DNA of 5,144 bases, from the IMG/VR virus record IMGVR_UViG_2690316344_000011; one strand, written 5' to 3'. Origin of the DNA: a virus. Taxonomy: Duplodnaviria; Heunggongvirae; Uroviricota; Caudoviricetes. Of this stretch, positions 1-5,064 are shown piece by piece (the first letter of the stretch is position 1; the number at the start of each line of letters is the position of its first letter). The notes below the pieces were generated by a model. It had not been told where the DNA came from. It saw only the letters and a program-made list of their open reading frames with translations, and ran no database searches. Position numbers and translations under genes: made by a program.

Positions 1-373
1 CCCGAATCGTCGCCTCCACGTGAGACTTCATAAAATCTTCAGCGGCAGAATCCGTGGGCTGAAAAAGCAGACTGTTTCGGGATTTATGCTCAATAAAATA
101 CCCGACCACCCCCAGCAACATCTTTGTATAGCCAACACGGGCAGATTTAATCAGGTTAACCGTGCGAACCTGGTCGTTACCCATACAGTTCATAATGGCG
201 ATCTGGAATGGCAGCGTTTTCCATTCGCCCTCACCATATGAAGATTCTTTAGGCAGATAATAATTTTGATCAGCCCATTCAACTGCCGTCATTGGTACAA
301 CCCTGACCAGAGGCTGCAGCGCAACCGAAACGGCAGCCATCATATTATTCAGTTGTTGCTCTGATATATTCAT
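1..373 (-). CDS. A: Terminase large subunit (lambda gpA-like), 5' portion only; the gene continues past the window start
   Basis: Minus-strand frame is open from ATG at 373..371 to the window edge. Translation begins MNISEQQLNNMMAAVSVALQPLVRVVPMTAVEWADQNYYLPKESSYGEGEWKTLPFQIAIMNCMGNDQVRTVNLIKSARVGYTKMLLGVVGYFIEHK, matching the lambda gpA N-terminus as I recall it (MNIS, TAVEWADANYYLPKES, KSARVGYSKMLLGV, YFIEHK). The start overlaps the 3' end of the small-subunit gene by 29 nt in another frame, as Nu1/A do in lambda. Absent from the ORF track because it has no stop inside the window. Confidence 0.9.
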   Translation of the reverse strand, partial: MNISEQQLNNMMAAVSVALQPLVRVVPMTAVEWADQNYYLPKESSYGEGEWKTLPFQIAIMNCMGNDQVRTVNLIKSARVGYTKMLLGVVGYFIEHKSRNSLLFQPTDSAAEDFMKSHVEATIR

Positions 374-854
374 CGAGTAAATCCGGTAATTTATCCCCTG
401 CCCGCGCACACTGATTTGCCCCCTTAGCAATAAGGGTTTTCAGATGGTCAAGATGGCGCGGTGTTAAATCAGGAAACTGTCGCTGCATGGATAAAGGGAT
501 GGAATCAAGCGTACTGGATAACGCCATTGCCAGCTTACTGAGGGCAAAAATACAGAACCCGGTGTCAATAAGTTTTCCTTTTGACACCTCATTTTTTAAC
601 TGCTGTGTAACAGCCTGTTCTGCTGTCAGTTCCCATCTGGCAATAAGCAATTTCTCCTCATAGTCGTCTTCGCTATCGCCATCAGGCACATCGTTTTTAC
701 TTCTCCTCAGATACGATATGTAAAAATCGCGCCAGGCATCCAGATCCAGTTGCCCTCGCTTATTCGATATCGGGGCACCCGGCAATTTCTGCAATCTGCG
801 AAGCTGGCGATCGGTCAGACTTAAATGCCTGGCAACTTCAGTCTGCGTAGCCAC
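345..854 (-). CDS. nu1: Terminase small subunit (lambda Nu1-like DNA-recognition subunit)
   Basis: 169-aa ORF with GTG start at 854..852 preceded by GAGGTGAGGA. C-terminal half (FCIFALSKLAMALSSTLDSIPLSMQRQFPDLTPRHLDHLK...LLDEYI) parallels lambda Nu1 as recalled (FCTFVLSRIAGEIASILDGLPLSVQRRFPELENRHVDFLK...LLSEYI). Lies immediately downstream of the cos site and is followed by the overlapping large-subunit gene. Confidence 0.9.
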   Translation of the reverse strand: MATQTEVARHLSLTDRQLRRLQKLPGAPISNKRGQLDLDAWRDFYISYLRRSKNDVPDGDSEDDYEEKLLIARWELTAEQAVTQQLKNEVSKGKLIDTGFCIFALSKLAMALSSTLDSIPLSMQRQFPDLTPRHLDHLKTLIAKGANQCARAGDKLPDLLDEYIRATTE

Positions 855-1037: not shown

Positions 1038-1049
1038 AGGTCGCCGCCC
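1038..1049 (-). other. cosN: 12-nt cohesive-end sequence identical to lambda (GGGCGGCGACCT on the minus strand)
   Basis: Plus strand 1038..1049 is AGGTCGCCGCCC, the reverse complement of the lambda cohesive end. The adjoining bases on both sides also match the lambda left end (CGCGGGTTTTCGCTATTTATGAAAATTTTCCGG) and right end (CGACAGGTTACG) as recalled. Confidence 0.85.
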
Positions 1050-1256: not shown

Positions 1257-1481
1257 ATGTCATCAAAGAACAGAACCCGCAGAACAACAACCCGCAACAT
1301 CCGATTTCCAAACCAGATAATTGAACAAATTAACATCGCTCTTGACCTGAAAGGTTCAGGTAATTTTTCAGCGTGGGTTATTGAAGCCTGCAGAAGAAGA
1401 TTAATTAATGAAAAACATGCTCAATTTGTACCCAACAAAGACAAACACGACCAGAGCACCTGTTCAGACAGGTTTACTTAA
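1257..1481 (+). CDS. Small conserved phage protein, homolog of the ORF at the lambda right end; probably the YlcI/YnfO-type (DUF3950) family
   Basis: 74-aa ORF with ATG at 1257. MSSKNRTRRTTTRNIRFPNQIIEQINIALDLKGSGNFSAWVIEACRRRL is near-identical to the lambda right-end ORF as I recall it (MSTKNRTRRTTTRNIRFPNQMIEQINIALEQKGSGNFSAWVIEACRRRL). Same position next to cos, followed by a terminator. The family name is from memory. Confidence 0.7.
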   Translation: MSSKNRTRRTTTRNIRFPNQIIEQINIALDLKGSGNFSAWVIEACRRRLINEKHAQFVPNKDKHDQSTCSDRFT

Positions 1482-1500
1482 ACGACTTATATATGACACA

Positions 1501-1526
1501 AAAAGCGACCACTAAAGTCGCTTTTT
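1501..1526. terminator. Bidirectional rho-independent terminator between convergent genes
   Basis: Stem AGCGAC (1504..1509) pairs with GTCGCT (1517..1522) around a 7-nt loop. Flanked by AAAA on the 5' side and TTTTT on the 3' side, so either strand gives hairpin plus U-run. Lies 22 nt after the plus-strand stop at 1481 and 40 nt after the minus-strand stop at 1563. Confidence 0.7.
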
Positions 1527-1562
1527 CTTATGGTAACAGGCAATAACTCTCTCAGATATTTT

Positions 1563-1877
1563 TTAGCATTTTTTTGACCGCGCGTTTCCGGACGTATTCT
1601 GTTCTCCTGTCCCTTTATATCGTCGGAATACCCGCCGCTCTTCAAATCCCATTCCCAACTCAGAATGTAGTCTGTTGACCGCTTGTTTTATTTCGGTCAG
1701 GTTCACCGGTGAAACCGGAGTCCGGCGCGCCTTACGCAAACACTCTGCTCGTTTCTGTGCCGCCACTTTTCTTTTCTGGTCATCACTTAGCTGTACCATC
1801 ACTTTTGCCCATCGTTCAGCTGCTCTCCGGTACAGTCCTTTTTTCTCCAGACATTCTGCCACGTGATCATGTAGCAT
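1563..1877 (-). CDS. PerC-family (Pch-like) transcriptional regulator; accessory gene
   Basis: 104-aa ORF with strong RBS (GGAGG, 6-nt spacer, ATG at 1877). The N-terminal motif ECLEKKGLYRRAAERWAKVM resembles the conserved PerC/Pch motif (LE.KG.WRRAA.RW) as I recall it. Has its own terminator and an A+T-rich upstream region, and sits between Rz and cos where lambdoid phages carry accessory genes. Family assignment unverified. Confidence 0.65.
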   Translation of the reverse strand: MLHDHVAECLEKKGLYRRAAERWAKVMVQLSDDQKRKVAAQKRAECLRKARRTPVSPVNLTEIKQAVNRLHSELGMGFEERRVFRRYKGTGEQNTSGNARSKKC

Positions 1878-2342
1878 AAGTGACCTCCGATTATCTACAG
1901 ACTGCCATCCTGAATTTACCTTCCCTTAATGAAATAACAATAAAAAACAAACCACGCAAAAACAATAAAACAACACACAAAAAAAACTAAATAATAAACA
2001 AAAATAATCACCTTATTTTATTATTTTTTGAGGGAGCAATTACTGAACAAAAAACGCTGACTATATACTCAAAACCAAACAACTATTCTGCCAATCAGGT
2101 ATCATGGCAACACACGGAATTACCGTGTTTTTGCCTTCTCTGCCCATACAATACGGGCATATACTTCATTCTCTATTGTAATATTTCTATCCATGTGCCC
2201 CACTCCATTTACCTGTAAATAATATTCAAAATATTTATCACAGAAATCGTTTTTGGCCATGAACTGAGCACACTATAAAGTCCGGAACTGACTCTTTGTT
2301 AAATTACCTTAACGTTACCAGTAACACCTTCATAACAAAACA
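1878..2342 (-). promoter_or_regulatory. A+T-rich non-coding region between Rz and the PerC-like gene; probable promoter and leader region
   Basis: About 465 bp with no ORF of 60 aa or more on either strand and visibly A+T-rich. Includes a stretch (1942..1987) made almost only of A and C, and an 8-A run at 1979..1986. A candidate sigma70-like promoter on the minus strand has -35 TTGCCA (2105..2110), a 17-bp spacer and -10 AATAGT (2082..2087). The promoter call is weak. Confidence 0.4.
2112..2132 (+). terminator. Candidate plus-strand intrinsic terminator hairpin
   Basis: ACACGG (2112..2117) pairs with CCGTGT (2123..2128) around loop AATTA, followed by TTTT (2129..2132). Hairpin plus T-run only on the plus strand. 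Short 6-bp stem, so weak. Confidence 0.3.
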
Positions 2343-2810
2343 TCACGGTATACACTGGGTACGGATATATTCCTGTGCTCCTTCCAGTTGCTTCTGCATT
2401 GCCATCAGCCGTTCTCTGAGGATGAAATAATCCCGTTCAGCGGTGTCTGCCAGTCGGGGGCCGGTTGCATTATCCACGCCGGAGGTGCCGGTGGCTTCAC
2501 GCACGGTACCGGAGCAGGTGGCGTTGATCCGCAGGCGCTTACGACCAGCGGCAACATCAGCACGCAGAGTTTCATTTTCAGCTCTCGCATCGGCTAATTC
2601 CCTCGAGTATCTGGCATCAAGTGCAGCGACATCACGCTGGCGTACCTGCATATCAGTAATTGTCACGTTCGCCAGCTTCAGCTCACTGGCTTTTTTATCG
2701 CGTTGCGCTTTGTAGGTAATGGCGTTATCGCGGTAATGATTCAGCCCCAGACTAAGCACACCACAGGCTACCAGCAGGACAATAATCACCACACACAGAA
2801 CACGGTTCAT
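2343..2810 (-). CDS. Rz: Rz i-spanin (inner-membrane spanin subunit)
   Basis: 155-aa [73 protein letters not shown] and [22 protein letters not shown] closely match lambda Rz as recalled. N-terminal TM segment present. ATG at 2810 is preceded by GAGGGGGAT. Confidence 0.92.
2405..2590 (-). CDS. Rz1: Rz1 o-spanin (outer-membrane lipoprotein), embedded in the +1 frame of Rz
   Basis: 61-aa ORF wholly inside Rz in a different frame. [15 protein letters not shown] lipoprotein signal followed by the proline-rich [27 protein letters not shown], matching lambda Rz1 as recalled ([27 protein letters not shown]). Confidence 0.88.
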
Positions 2811-2817
2811 ATCCCCC

Positions 2818-2949
2818 TCACCCCACCAGCCATGACAAAGTTAAGACGCGCCAGGCAGTGGAAAAGCAAATAGCAACCAGCATTAGTGAAAATGAAATGC
2901 CGACGATTACACAGAGGATCTTCGCCAGCGTTATGAGCTTGTCTGACAT
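2818..2949 (-). CDS. Hypothetical 43-aa single-pass membrane peptide immediately upstream of Rz
   Basis: Found by manual translation; below the ORF-track size cut-off. ATG at 2949..2947 preceded by GAGGA with a 6-nt spacer. Product [43 protein letters not shown] has one long hydrophobic segment. Stop TGA (2820..2818) lies inside the G-rich RBS of Rz, 7 nt before the Rz ATG. No homolog recognised. Confidence 0.45.
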
Positions 2950-2961
2950 GCTTAATCCTCT

Positions 2962-3144
2962 TCACGATTTCAACGCAATGACCAGTTTTGCCAGCCCATA
3001 CAGCATCGGAGACACAGCAATACCGACCGCCACCCACTTAATAGCAAAAGCCAGCGCTCTGCTGACGTCATCAGTTACAGGCGCTTTCAGTTCAAGGCCG
3101 TTTTTCATAGTCAATCTCAACAGAATTCGTTTATACTTTCCCAT
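2962..3144 (-). CDS. Hypothetical 60-aa protein with basic N-terminus and hydrophobic C-terminal segment
   Basis: Internal ATG (3144..3142) of the 86-aa track ORF 2962..3222, preceded by AAGGGAG. The 26 codons upstream are encoded by the terminator hairpin and are taken as a spurious extension. Product MGKYKRILLRLTMKNGLELKAPVTDDVSRALAFAIKWVAVGIAVSPMLYGLAKLVIALKS. E. coli-like codons. Followed 12 nt later by the 43-aa ORF. No homolog recognised. Confidence 0.5.
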   Translation of the reverse strand: MGKYKRILLRLTMKNGLELKAPVTDDVSRALAFAIKWVAVGIAVSPMLYGLAKLVIALKS

Positions 3145-3177
3145 GTTCTCCCTTGCCTTACTCAAGGTCAGAAACAC

Positions 3178-3216
3178 AAAACCCCGTTTGCGGCCAACAA
3201 ACGGGGTTTTACTTTT
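3178..3216. terminator. Strong bidirectional intrinsic terminator hairpin between the endolysin gene and the small-ORF module
   Basis: Perfect 13-bp stem AAAACCCCGTTTG (3178..3190) with CAAACGGGGTTTT (3198..3210) around a 7-nt loop CGGCCAA. T-rich sequence follows on both strands (TTTTACTTTT on plus, TTTTGTGTTTC on minus). Confidence 0.65.
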
Positions 3217-3299
3217 ATTCACTTAGTTTTTGCCAGTTCGCAGGATTTCGTGTTATCCGCCAGTGTGAGCAAACCGCATTTTTCAGCAAAATATTCTGC

Positions 3300-3833
3300 T
3301 TATCTGTCAATTCCCCAGCACGCCAGCGCGCTCTCCTGGTCACGCCGTGAAACCTGACCGTAGCAGTTGTTTGAGCGAATACGGCAGTCTCTGCCACCGT
3401 CCTTAATCCACCAGCGAATCGCCTCACACGCTCCCCTGCGATCACCTGCATTAATTCGTCTGTAAAACGTCGACGGGAAACACTTACCGGGACCAATGTT
3501 GTACGGACAGAATGACGCGATCCCCGCTTTCTGGGGTTCGGTCAGCGGTACTTTAATATTGCGCTCCACCCACTCCAGCGCCTTATCACGTTCAATGGCG
3601 TTAACCTGGTCGCATTTTTCCTTCGACAACTTCATGCCCGGAACGACAGGTTTACCATCCACCAGGATGGCACCGCGGCAGATGGTCCAGATACCCGCAC
3701 CATCACGGTATGCCGTGGTGTGGTTACCTTCTTTTTCGTCAAGAAACTGGTCGAGGATTTCAGGCGCAGACGCCCCTGCACCAATCAGCGCCAGAACGGC
3801 AGCCGACAGGCCGTATCTGATTTTTGCGTTCAT
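3300..3833 (-). CDS. R: SAR endolysin, T4-lysozyme-like muramidase (glycoside hydrolase family 24)
   Basis: 177-aa ORF. N-terminal Gly/Ala-rich weakly hydrophobic segment (YGLSAAVLALIGAGASA) typical of a signal-anchor-release domain, followed by the catalytic E-x8-D-x5-T arrangement (EGNHTTAYRDGAGIWT). Matches the pairing with a pinholin upstream. No obvious Shine-Dalgarno before ATG 3833. Confidence 0.9.
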   Translation of the reverse strand: MNAKIRYGLSAAVLALIGAGASAPEILDQFLDEKEGNHTTAYRDGAGIWTICRGAILVDGKPVVPGMKLSKEKCDQVNAIERDKALEWVERNIKVPLTEPQKAGIASFCPYNIGPGKCFPSTFYRRINAGDRRGACEAIRWWIKDGGRDCRIRSNNCYGQVSRRDQESALACWGIDR

Positions 3834-3883
3834 GGATATTTATCAGGGTTTATCGATTTCAAATCCCTGGATATGTTAAGTCT

Positions 3884-4228
3884 TCAGGCCAGCGGTGGAG
3901 TCTTCAGAGAACCAGTAATTATTCCCGGTAGTTTTCCTCTGTAGGTTATCAACACATCCTGCGCCTCTAAAATTACGGGGCGCTTTTCCGGCAACGGACC
4001 ATCCCCTTCACATAACCCGGCAGCAACATCCATGAAAAACTGCTTCGCCTGCTTTTTCGCCTCAGCTTCGTAAAACTCCAGCGTGGCACCTTCAGTACGG
4101 TCAAGACTAATCGCCACATCTGGCAACAACAGTGACGGATACCCACCAATTTCCAGTGCCACAGTAACAGTAATCTTATCCGGGTAATTATTTATCCCTT
4201 TAACACCCAGTTCGTATTTTTTCTTCAT
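3884..4228 (-). CDS. Hypothetical protein between holin and endolysin; position matches the YdfR-like (DUF1327) gene of Qin-type lysis cassettes
   Basis: 114-aa ORF. ATG at 4228 preceded by GGGGAG with an 8-nt spacer that overlaps the holin stop codon. The family assignment rests on gene order recalled from E. coli Qin (essQ-ydfR-rrrQ), not on recognised sequence motifs. Confidence 0.7.
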   Translation of the reverse strand: MKKKYELGVKGINNYPDKITVTVALEIGGYPSLLLPDVAISLDRTEGATLEFYEAEAKKQAKQFFMDVAAGLCEGDGPLPEKRPVILEAQDVLITYRGKLPGIITGSLKTPPLA

Positions 4229-4232
4229 CGCT

Positions 4233-4439
4233 TTACTCCCCCCGCGCCGCCTTACGACGGTCCTCTCTGATTTTGAAATACAGGTTAGTCAGATACGTCA
4301 GCAGGCCAAACAGCAGACTCCCCAGCACACCGATTGCCACCCACTGGGACGGAGAGACTTTGTCCAGCAGCTGCAGTAACCAGTATCCCGTCCCCACCGC
4401 TGACGTGGTGTATGACACACCTGTTGTGATTTTTTCCAT
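4233..4439 (-). CDS. S: Class II pinholin, phage 21 S-type
   Basis: 68-aa [71 protein letters not shown] is near-identical to the S21 pinholin as recalled (...[40 protein letters not shown]). Two TM segments and a charged C-terminus. Confidence 0.92.
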
Positions 4440-4740: not shown

Positions 4741-5064
4741 TTATGCTGCCGGTGCATTTATCTCCAGCATCAGACTTTCTATCTCAACGCCATACGCTGC
4801 ATTTTTTGTAACATCCGTCAGCGTCAGCGCATTCAGTCCCAGTGTCAGACTGTCTTTTATAACCTGGAATGCCGGGCCAGCCACTCCATTCAGTTTCGGA
4901 GTAACCGTGGCACTGCCGGCGGTGAACACCAGCTCCAGCGTCTGCCAGTCGTTACCGTAATCGCCGAACTCCCCCAGCTTCGTGTTTCCGGCTTTCCTGT
5001 GATGCATCAGATTCACCCTGCCGTCAGTGGTCTGAGTGAAGTACGACATCAGGAACGGGAGCAT
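4741..5064 (-). CDS. Hypothetical protein (107 aa), accessory gene directly upstream of the lysis cassette; possibly the 3' remnant of a larger frameshifted gene
   Basis: ORF with E. coli-like codon usage (CTG-rich). In-frame stop at 5106..5104 limits N-terminal extension. A second minus-strand frame is open from the window edge (5144) to about 5027 and overlaps its 5' end. No family recognised. Confidence 0.5.
   Translation of the reverse strand: MLPFLMSYFTQTTDGRVNLMHHRKAGNTKLGEFGDYGNDWQTLELVFTAGSATVTPKLNGVAGPAFQVIKDSLTLGLNALTLTDVTKNAAYGVEIESLMLEINAPAA

Follow-up and report, generated by a model that had tools for sequence, protein, structure and literature searches.

A group-1 pch gene on a lambdoid prophage: a most probable PchA-type LEE activator carried as an accessory cassette between Rz/Rz1 and cos

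The DNA analysed in this study, hereafter the window, is the complete 5,144-nucleotide stretch taken from the tailed-virus record IMGVR_UViG_2690316344_000011 (Caudoviricetes) of IMG/VR, and the gene of interest is an ATG-initiated open reading frame (ORF) of 104 codons that runs from position 1877 down to 1563. The original prediction did not state the strand of this ORF, which is here established as minus. The window corresponds to the late region of a lambdoid prophage. Read along the minus strand, it carries in turn a SASA/DUF6645 esterase gene, a class II holin gene, YdfR/DUF1327, an endolysin gene, two small ORFs, Rz/Rz1 and the ORF under study, followed by the cosN 12-mer, a Nu1-like small terminase gene and the start of the gene for the large terminase subunit. 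The ORF had been placed between Rz and cos, and the positions of Rz/Rz1 on one side and of cosN and Nu1 on the other bear this out. Our analyses, which addressed the identity, family and anatomy of the gene, the boundaries of its cassette and the occurrence of a locus of enterocyte effacement (LEE) in the closest genome, indicate that the ORF is almost certainly a group-1 pch gene of attaching-and-effacing Escherichia coli, an accessory cassette between Rz/Rz1 and cos that encodes a PchA-type LEE activator.

The predicted protein matched the Pfam PerC profile (PF06069) from end to end (E = 3.8e-44): residues 1-89 covered profile positions 1-89 of 90, and the score was 149.3 bits where the cut-off is 22.6. 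It is identical at 104 of 104 residues to the product of ECs_1091 of E. coli O157:H7 Sakai, which is annotated as 'transcriptional regulator PchA' on prophage Sp4, and when the upstream region, the gene and the terminator were compared together, the window and the Sakai pchA locus showed 2 differences in 866 nucleotides (864/866 identical). In RefSeq, the identical locus is labelled 'PerC family transcriptional regulator' (WP_001303878.1), and the exact protein sequence occurs in at least 1000 contigs under this name or as 'PchABC family transcriptional regulator'. PerC from plasmid pMAR2 of enteropathogenic E. coli (EPEC) was 47.1% identical to the window protein by tblastn and 48% in a MAFFT alignment. 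In addition, the PerC signature is complete in the window protein (A7, L10, E11, G14, R17, R18, A19, A20, R22, W23 and C46); across 48 diverse PerC-family representatives, R17, A19 and W23 were invariant and the other signature residues were at least 90% conserved. The resemblance of the N-terminal motif to PerC, which had been noticed from the letters alone, was thus confirmed both by the profile search and by alignment to PchA and PerC. Judged from these comparisons, the ORF is a real gene and can be named more precisely than 'PerC-like', as a group-1 pch of the pchA/B/C type; the choice among the A, B and C names is set by locus, not by sequence. Two other assignments were rejected: a spurious ORF, by the Pfam PerC match and the identity to PchA, and a group 2 or 3 Pch without LEE activity, by the identity of the protein to PchA.

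The signals around the gene also agree with those of Sakai pchA (Table 1). The consensus-like ribosome-binding site and the long A+T-rich upstream region described in the original prediction were both recovered: GGAGGT stands 5 nucleotides ahead of the ATG and is kept in a 91.5%-identical copy of the locus in strain A25, and the 465 bp upstream of the gene have a G + C content of 33.3%, compared with 47.1% for the window, falling to 27% at 1900-2060. This upstream region differs from that of Sakai pchA at one position only and is likely, by prediction, a target of H-NS-type silencing. The gene had also been credited with its own downstream terminator. A strong hairpin indeed begins 37 nucleotides past the pch stop codon, as a perfect 10-nucleotide inverted repeat (AAAAAGCGAC at 1500-1509 and GTCGCTTTTT at 1517-1526) with a folding energy of -14.7 kcal/mol (z = -5.3; 0 of 200 shuffled sequences as stable), and its sequence is unchanged in Sakai and A25. 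However, the element is symmetric, with an A-run, a stem and a T-run, and would therefore also serve the convergent YlcI/YnfO-family gene on the plus strand (1257-1481), so that the terminator is shared rather than the gene's own. The hairpin was not called by a simple terminator scan, probably because the A-T pairs were absorbed into the stem.

Table 1. Features in and around the pch locus of the window (positions in nucleotides of the window)
Feature	Position	Strand	Basis and remarks
pch gene	1563-1877	-	ATG start, 104 amino acids (aa) plus stop; group-1 PerC homologue; ORF list, Pfam and identity
Shine-Dalgarno GGAGGT	1883-1888	-	5-nt spacer to ATG; seen directly in sequence
Bidirectional intrinsic terminator	1500-1526	both	A5-GCGAC, 7-nt loop, GTCGC-T5
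A+T-rich upstream region	1878-2342	-	465 bp, Rz stop to pch ATG; presumed promoter/leader
46-aa ORF	2120-2260	-	within pch upstream region; unannotated by RefSeq; phrog_2157 full length, E 2.7e-37
Minimal swappable segment (pch cassette)	1392-2352	.	blastn break points against Stx1a phage Stx1_EH1995; larger variant 1102-2360 against PhiR12_1
YlcI/YnfO-family (DUF3950) gene	1257-1481	+	Pfam DUF3950 E 1.3e-17; NCBIfam YlcI_YnfO_N; RefSeq
lambda cosN 12-mer GGGCGGCGACCT	1038-1049	-	exact single match, 0 expected by chance; downstream boundary
Terminase small subunit, Nu1-like	345-854	-	Pfam Phage_Nu1 E 1e-18; RefSeq 'terminase small subunit'
Rz spanin	2343-2810	-	Pfam Phage_lysis E 6.1e-49; upstream neighbour, end of lysis cassette
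Rz1, embedded in Rz	2405-2590	-	phrog_3198 'Rz-like spanin'
Small ORF	2818-2949	-	43 aa, phrog_4906; hydrophobic-looking; hypothetical protein in D1
Small ORF	2962-3144	-	60 aa, phrog_1115; hypothetical protein in D1
Endolysin	3300-3833	-	gene order
Class II holin	4233-4439	-	gene order

Comparison with related phages revealed the boundaries of the segment to which pch belongs. Phage PhiR12_1 is 91-94% identical to the window over the terminase-cos part (positions 3-1101) and over the Rz-endolysin part (2361-3898), while positions 1102-2360 are swapped for approximately 330 bp of unrelated DNA. In the Shiga toxin 1a (Stx1a) phage Stx1_EH1995, positions 1257-1391, which make up the 5' part of the YlcI/YnfO gene, and those from 2353 onward are held in common, and 1392-2352 are replaced by DNA lacking pch. 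In strain A25, the 91.5%-identical YlcI-pch-Rz block adjoins a different small terminase gene and an HNH endonuclease gene. The YlcI/YnfO gene, which is convergent with pch, flanks the variable cassette or belongs to it. These comparisons of sequence indicate that a segment of approximately 1 kb moves as a unit among lambdoid backbones and is a swappable accessory cassette, and the occurrence or lack of this block in PhiR12_1, the Stx1a phage and A25 supports the earlier description of pch as a self-contained accessory gene. With respect to the features expected of a moron, the block shows presence/absence variation among related phages and has a terminator, though one held in common with the convergent gene.

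The cassette is widespread in sequenced E. coli. A search for the 841-bp locus from 1500 to 2340 at an identity of at least 99% turned up 662 complete E. coli records. The median copy number per genome was 3, which matches the three group-1 pch genes of O157, and the serotypes that carry the locus include O157:H7, O145, O103, O111, O26 and O121. In EDL933 and other O157:H7 genomes, the locus occupies three places at 99.8% identity. Counted by genome, the pch locus was present in 673 of 5426 complete E. coli genomes, and 1866 of its 1881 places were chromosomal. Conversely, group-1 pch was found in no complete phage genome of a phage collection of 50,697 records, in which pch and the upstream ORF appeared only in two short fragment records from induced O157, which suggests that the prophages carrying pch are rarely recovered as viable phages.

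The closest match to the window was E. coli D1, isolated from a dog, with 99.9% identity (6 substitutions and one 38-bp indel); a literature search for this strain yielded nothing of relevance. The corresponding D1 prophage adjoins potC and carries the paa adhesin gene, hokD/sok, dicB and the gene for the DicF small RNA (Rfam RF00039, 76.7 bits; positions 11170-11221 of the D1 locus), which lies just upstream of dicB and approximately 18 kb from pch. The original prediction had looked to the presence of a LEE island in the host genome; this search was run on D1 only, and D1 was found to harbor a complete LEE with eae, tir, escN/V and grlRA. The island is located between dicD (just past dsbD) and yjdJ, shows the order espF-escF-espB/D/A-sepL-escD-eae-cesT-tir ... 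escN-escV ... grlA/grlR ... escRSTU, and terminates in an H-NS-family gene at the position of ler. The selC site was considered as well; no LEE lies there in D1, and a P4-like element fills the site.

Concerning LEE1 activation, H-NS displacement and the control of pch by LrhA, NtrC/sigma-S, butyrate/Lrp and DicF, our account draws on the literature. Fukui et al. reported that Pch makes the LEE1 promoter approximately 110-fold more active in K-12 without Ler, that this activation is lost upon deletion of hns and stpA, that 88% of the Pch-bound regions lie inside H-NS-bound regions and that H-NS occupancy at LEE1 drops with pch present, and they proposed that H-NS, StpA and Hha are displaced from the silencing complex (PMC4764244). 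Adherence and the expression of ler and espA depend on group-1 pch genes (Iyoda and Watanabe 2004, as cited in PMC6265319 and PMC4456613), and PchABC are interchangeable with PerC at LEE1 (Porter 2005, as cited in PMC5293775). According to the published experiments, PchA associates with A+T-rich DNA that is covered by H-NS, both at the LEE1 (ler) promoter and at further loci gained by horizontal transfer, and loosens the H-NS/StpA/Hha silencing complex, which allows RNA polymerase to transcribe ler; Ler in turn switches on the remainder of the LEE type III secretion island together with non-LEE effector genes. The identical protein of the window would work in the same way.

Not all of the published effects of Pch concern the LEE, and in this host a group-1 pch might instead act mainly on non-LEE targets, such as acid-resistance genes, fimbriae, curli/biofilm and anaerobic respiration. 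It would then serve anti-silencing in general, or niche adaptation, and not be a switch dedicated to the LEE. Numerous sites bound by Pch lie outside the LEE, among them acid-resistance and nucleoid-protein genes (Abe 2008, as cited in PMC4456613), PerC of EPEC affects fim phase as well as nitrate/nitrite respiration (PMC5293775), and group-1 pch reduces csgA expression and biofilm via ler (PMC6265319). However, the closest genome holds the full LEE, the numbers of complete genomes positive for the pch locus (673) and for the LEE, as escN-escV (697 of the same 5426), are nearly equal when each set is counted separately, and the strongest and best-documented effect of the identical protein is on LEE1 (PMC4764244). 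We thus regard a mainly non-LEE role as unlikely and retain LEE activation as the principal role of the gene.

The independent expression of pch that had been proposed in the original prediction is plausible but was overstated, as the promoter scan gave no convincing site and late read-through is equally possible, the orientation of pch being that of the late lysis and packaging genes. In a lysogen, pch would be read from a promoter somewhere in the A+T-rich upstream region, and upon prophage induction it would probably also be read through from the late operon because of its orientation. An alternative reading takes pch for a silent passenger in a prophage undergoing decay, a gene that is transcribed solely when the late operon reads through into it upon induction and that has no role in the lysogen. 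In line with such a passenger, beside the orientation of pch and the outcome of the promoter scan, group-1 pch transcripts increase upon SOS induction (PMC6265319), the terminase large subunit gene is frameshifted in D1, and group-1 pch is absent from the complete isolated phage genomes of the phage collection. Nevertheless, we consider this highly improbable, as deletion of pchA/B in uninduced O157 lysogens lowers LEE expression and adherence (PMC6265319), and the upstream region in which a lysogen-active promoter would be needed is 99.8% identical here to that of Sakai. In addition, pchA transcription responds to LrhA (PMC4456613), to butyrate through Lrp and LeuO (PMC13012123) and to NtrC/sigma-S (PMC10714755), and such regulated transcription in lysogens implies a lysogen-active promoter in the upstream region.

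Post-transcriptional control was considered with respect to DicF, which has been reported to open an anti-Shine-Dalgarno structure in the pchA coding region (PMC7769764, PMC7873438). Since the DicF gene and pch both lie on the D1 prophage, a single element is able to hold pchA together with its reported translational activator. In the window, as a test of the published structure, the leader and early coding sequence folded no better than shuffled sequences (z = -0.9), and in the partition function the Shine-Dalgarno sequence paired ambiguously, with coding positions +93 to +100 (p ~0.6) or +156 to +163 (p ~0.3). The longest perfect complements between DicF of the D1 prophage and the pch mRNA were 7 nucleotides, a length reached equally in 70% of shuffled DicF sequences. 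The published mechanism was not reproduced by these in-silico tests.

The upstream region of pch also contains a 46-aa ORF, whose product is MAKNDFCDKYFEYYLQVNGVGHMDRNITIENEVYARIVWAEKAKTR. As this ORF has a full-length match to phrog_2157, the upstream region is not wholly non-coding by every annotation. The ORF is without annotation in D1 and in Sakai, is intact in A25 (1 non-synonymous and 1 synonymous change), moves together with the pch cassette and was seen in one fragmentary record only of the phage collection; it is possibly no genuine gene. A palindrome at 2112-2128, called by the scan as a plus-strand terminator, overlaps the stop codon of this ORF, and no compensatory change preserving the hairpin was seen in A25. 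Conservation in the A25 copy is higher in the distal part of the upstream region (approximately 2045-2345, which takes in the 46-aa ORF) than in the pch coding sequence, and is lowest in the A/T tract at 1890-2045, just upstream of the Shine-Dalgarno sequence, where small indels occur.

The mode of action of Pch was approached through its predicted fold. An AlphaFold model built on the 48-sequence alignment was all-helical (mean predicted local distance difference test score 83.5), with very confident helices at residues 5-13, 16-29 and 33-50, after which come two more helices (60-73 and 80-86) and a basic tail modelled with low confidence. The region of the first three helices gave weak profile matches to the ANR family of anti-regulators (Aar, Rnr), members of which bind H-NS, Ler and AraC-type regulators, with Rnr binding H-NS and Ler in a two-hybrid assay (PMC10148876). 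The NCBIfam model ANR_neg_reg (NF033650) matched 45 of the 48 PerC-family representatives below its cut-off of 32 bits (best E 5e-07), and short PerC-like proteins of 56-69 aa scored 25-31.6 bits over nearly the whole model. PchA itself reached only 13.6 bits (E = 0.046; residues 7-47), and it exceeds the ANR size, defined as under 10 kDa with three helices only, in having 104 aa, the two extra helices and the basic tail. The published ANR signature residues A10, E14, A22, W26, R47 and C51 (PMC4983702) align with PerC A7, E11, A19, W23, R42/43 and C46, and hhalign of the PerC alignment against a narrow Rnr-group alignment gave P = 0.0039 over 45 columns with a probability of 8.6% only. In the reciprocal test, the Rnr-group ANR proteins gave no Pfam PerC match at E up to 1 and showed weak tetratricopeptide repeat (TPR) matches instead, so that the shared pattern may be a generic TPR-like helical hairpin. 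PerC and Pch are not mentioned in three ANR-family papers, among them PMC10148876 and PMC4983702. Homology of the first ~50 residues of PerC/Pch, the three helices, to the ANR family is therefore a lead and not a finding, and in our estimation it is rather improbable.

The related proposal is that Pch works by protein-protein contacts, as ANR anti-regulators do, rather than by sequence-recognising DNA binding, with the N-terminal three-helix domain common to both. The profile matches, the aligned signature, the two-hybrid contacts of Rnr and the all-helical model, for which no helix-turn-helix-like match was found in the PDB, would all be in keeping with this. On the other hand, beyond the low scores and the failed reverse test, H-NS was not co-precipitated with PchA and the effects of Pch are confined to specific loci (Fukui et al., PMC4764244), and ANRs repress virulence genes whereas Pch activates them. 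This mode of action is accordingly rated as conceivable but doubtful. If the relationship were true, protein-protein contacts would be at least part of the means by which Pch/PerC lift the silencing of ler by H-NS, in place of classical activation through DNA binding. Enteric virulence islands would then have activators (PerC/Pch) and anti-activators (ANR) that belong to a single small-protein superfamily as its two branches. The link would thereby suggest a concrete, testable mode of action for Pch, and it is the sole part of this analysis that could matter beyond annotation.

Returning to the identification of the gene as a group-1 pch encoding a PchA-type LEE activator, several points weigh against it. 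With respect to the biochemical mode of Pch, the published chromatin immunoprecipitation and in-vitro data came from cell extracts and not from purified protein (PMC4764244), and our searches revealed no recognisable DNA-binding fold: a sequence homologue was not found in the PDB, and in a Foldseek search of the PDB with the model all matches had E values of 1.4 or above and were generic TPR/MIT-like helical ones, without a helix-turn-helix. The promoter scan of the upstream region yielded one weak sigma-70-like site (9/12; 2110-2082), the number of sites being below that in shuffled sequences. The D1 prophage may be defective, since its large terminase gene, beside Nu1, is frameshifted. Defective prophages in Sakai still express pch. 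Finally, we infer the presence of a LEE in the host of the window from the closest match, D1, only.

Further features of the window belong to the prophage backbone. Between the start of Nu1 and cosN there are three copies of CATGTCCGGTT (902-913, 932-942 and 989-1000), two direct and one inverted, which look like putative terminase-binding (R) sites of cosB, with a repeat sequence that is presumably different from that of the lambda cosB R sites. The two small ORFs at 2818-2949 and 2962-3144 sit between the endolysin and Rz genes. In the SASA/NanS-like carbohydrate esterase gene (ORF 4741-5064, minus strand), D1 and every other best match have 38 bp that are missing from the window; the missing bases fall between two copies of a 12-nucleotide direct repeat (window 5047-5058), and the loss should shift the reading frame of the gene, so that only a 107-aa C-terminal ORF matching DUF6645 remains. 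No Rfam family reached its gathering threshold anywhere in the window, or E up to 1 within 850-2400, and a tRNA search of the window found none.

Overall, the observation made in the original prediction was confirmed and its interpretation supported. The gene itself is already known: it is an experimentally characterised regulator of the pchA type in its usual prophage setting, for which RefSeq supplies an automatic annotation. No new biology is added here: descriptions already exist of the protein, of the regulatory region and of the genomic surroundings. Group-1 pch genes are one of the chief ways in which the prophages of enterohaemorrhagic E. coli and atypical EPEC are tied to expression of the LEE type III secretion island, and their copy number affects adherence and the output of virulence genes; by the presence of a pch copy, the prophage of the window would be a virulence-modulating element.

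Among known systems, the nearest is the group-1 Pch of Sakai and EDL933 (PchA with its paralogues PchB and PchC), with the same protein, ribosome-binding site, terminator and upstream region. The gene order of Rz/Rz1 followed by pch on a lambdoid prophage is seen in Sakai Sp4 as in the window, whereas the prophage backbone and the insertion site differ, the prophage of the nearest genome being located next to potC. In Sp4 (22131-27400), the block of holin, endolysin, Rz and pchA has an orientation opposite to that of the late genes on either side and is bracketed by IS629 and ISEc8 copies, which looks like an inversion or rearrangement mediated by insertion sequences. PerC of EPEC (perABC, on the EAF plasmid pMAR2) belongs to the same Pfam family, with 47-48% identity over residues 2-88 and the common N-terminal motif A..LE.KG.YRRAA.RWA..M..LS.D..RK.AA.KRA.C; unlike the window protein, it is plasmid-borne, is the product of the third gene in a PerA-controlled operon and has 89 aa, without the 15-residue basic C-terminal tail of Pch. 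PchD and PchE of O157 (groups 2 and 3) are likewise PerC-family proteins on prophage-like elements, but reportedly have little effect on the LEE, with PchE repressing curli and flagella instead (PMC6265319), and are set apart from the window gene by its identity to PchA and by the published descriptions. The ANR family, represented by Aar of enteroaggregative E. coli and Rnr of EPEC and C. rodentium, likewise consists of small, all-helical proteins encoded on mobile DNA and involved in H-NS/Ler/AraC virulence circuitry; in contrast, PchA falls below the family cut-off, is longer (104 aa against under 80) and is an activator rather than an anti-activator. As a cassette, pch resembles the lambdoid morons of the Rz-cos interval, of which lambda bor is an example, in being an accessory gene that affects the host, with a terminator, atypical flanks and presence/absence polymorphism. 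Lambda bor is oriented opposite to the late operon, while pch is co-oriented with it.

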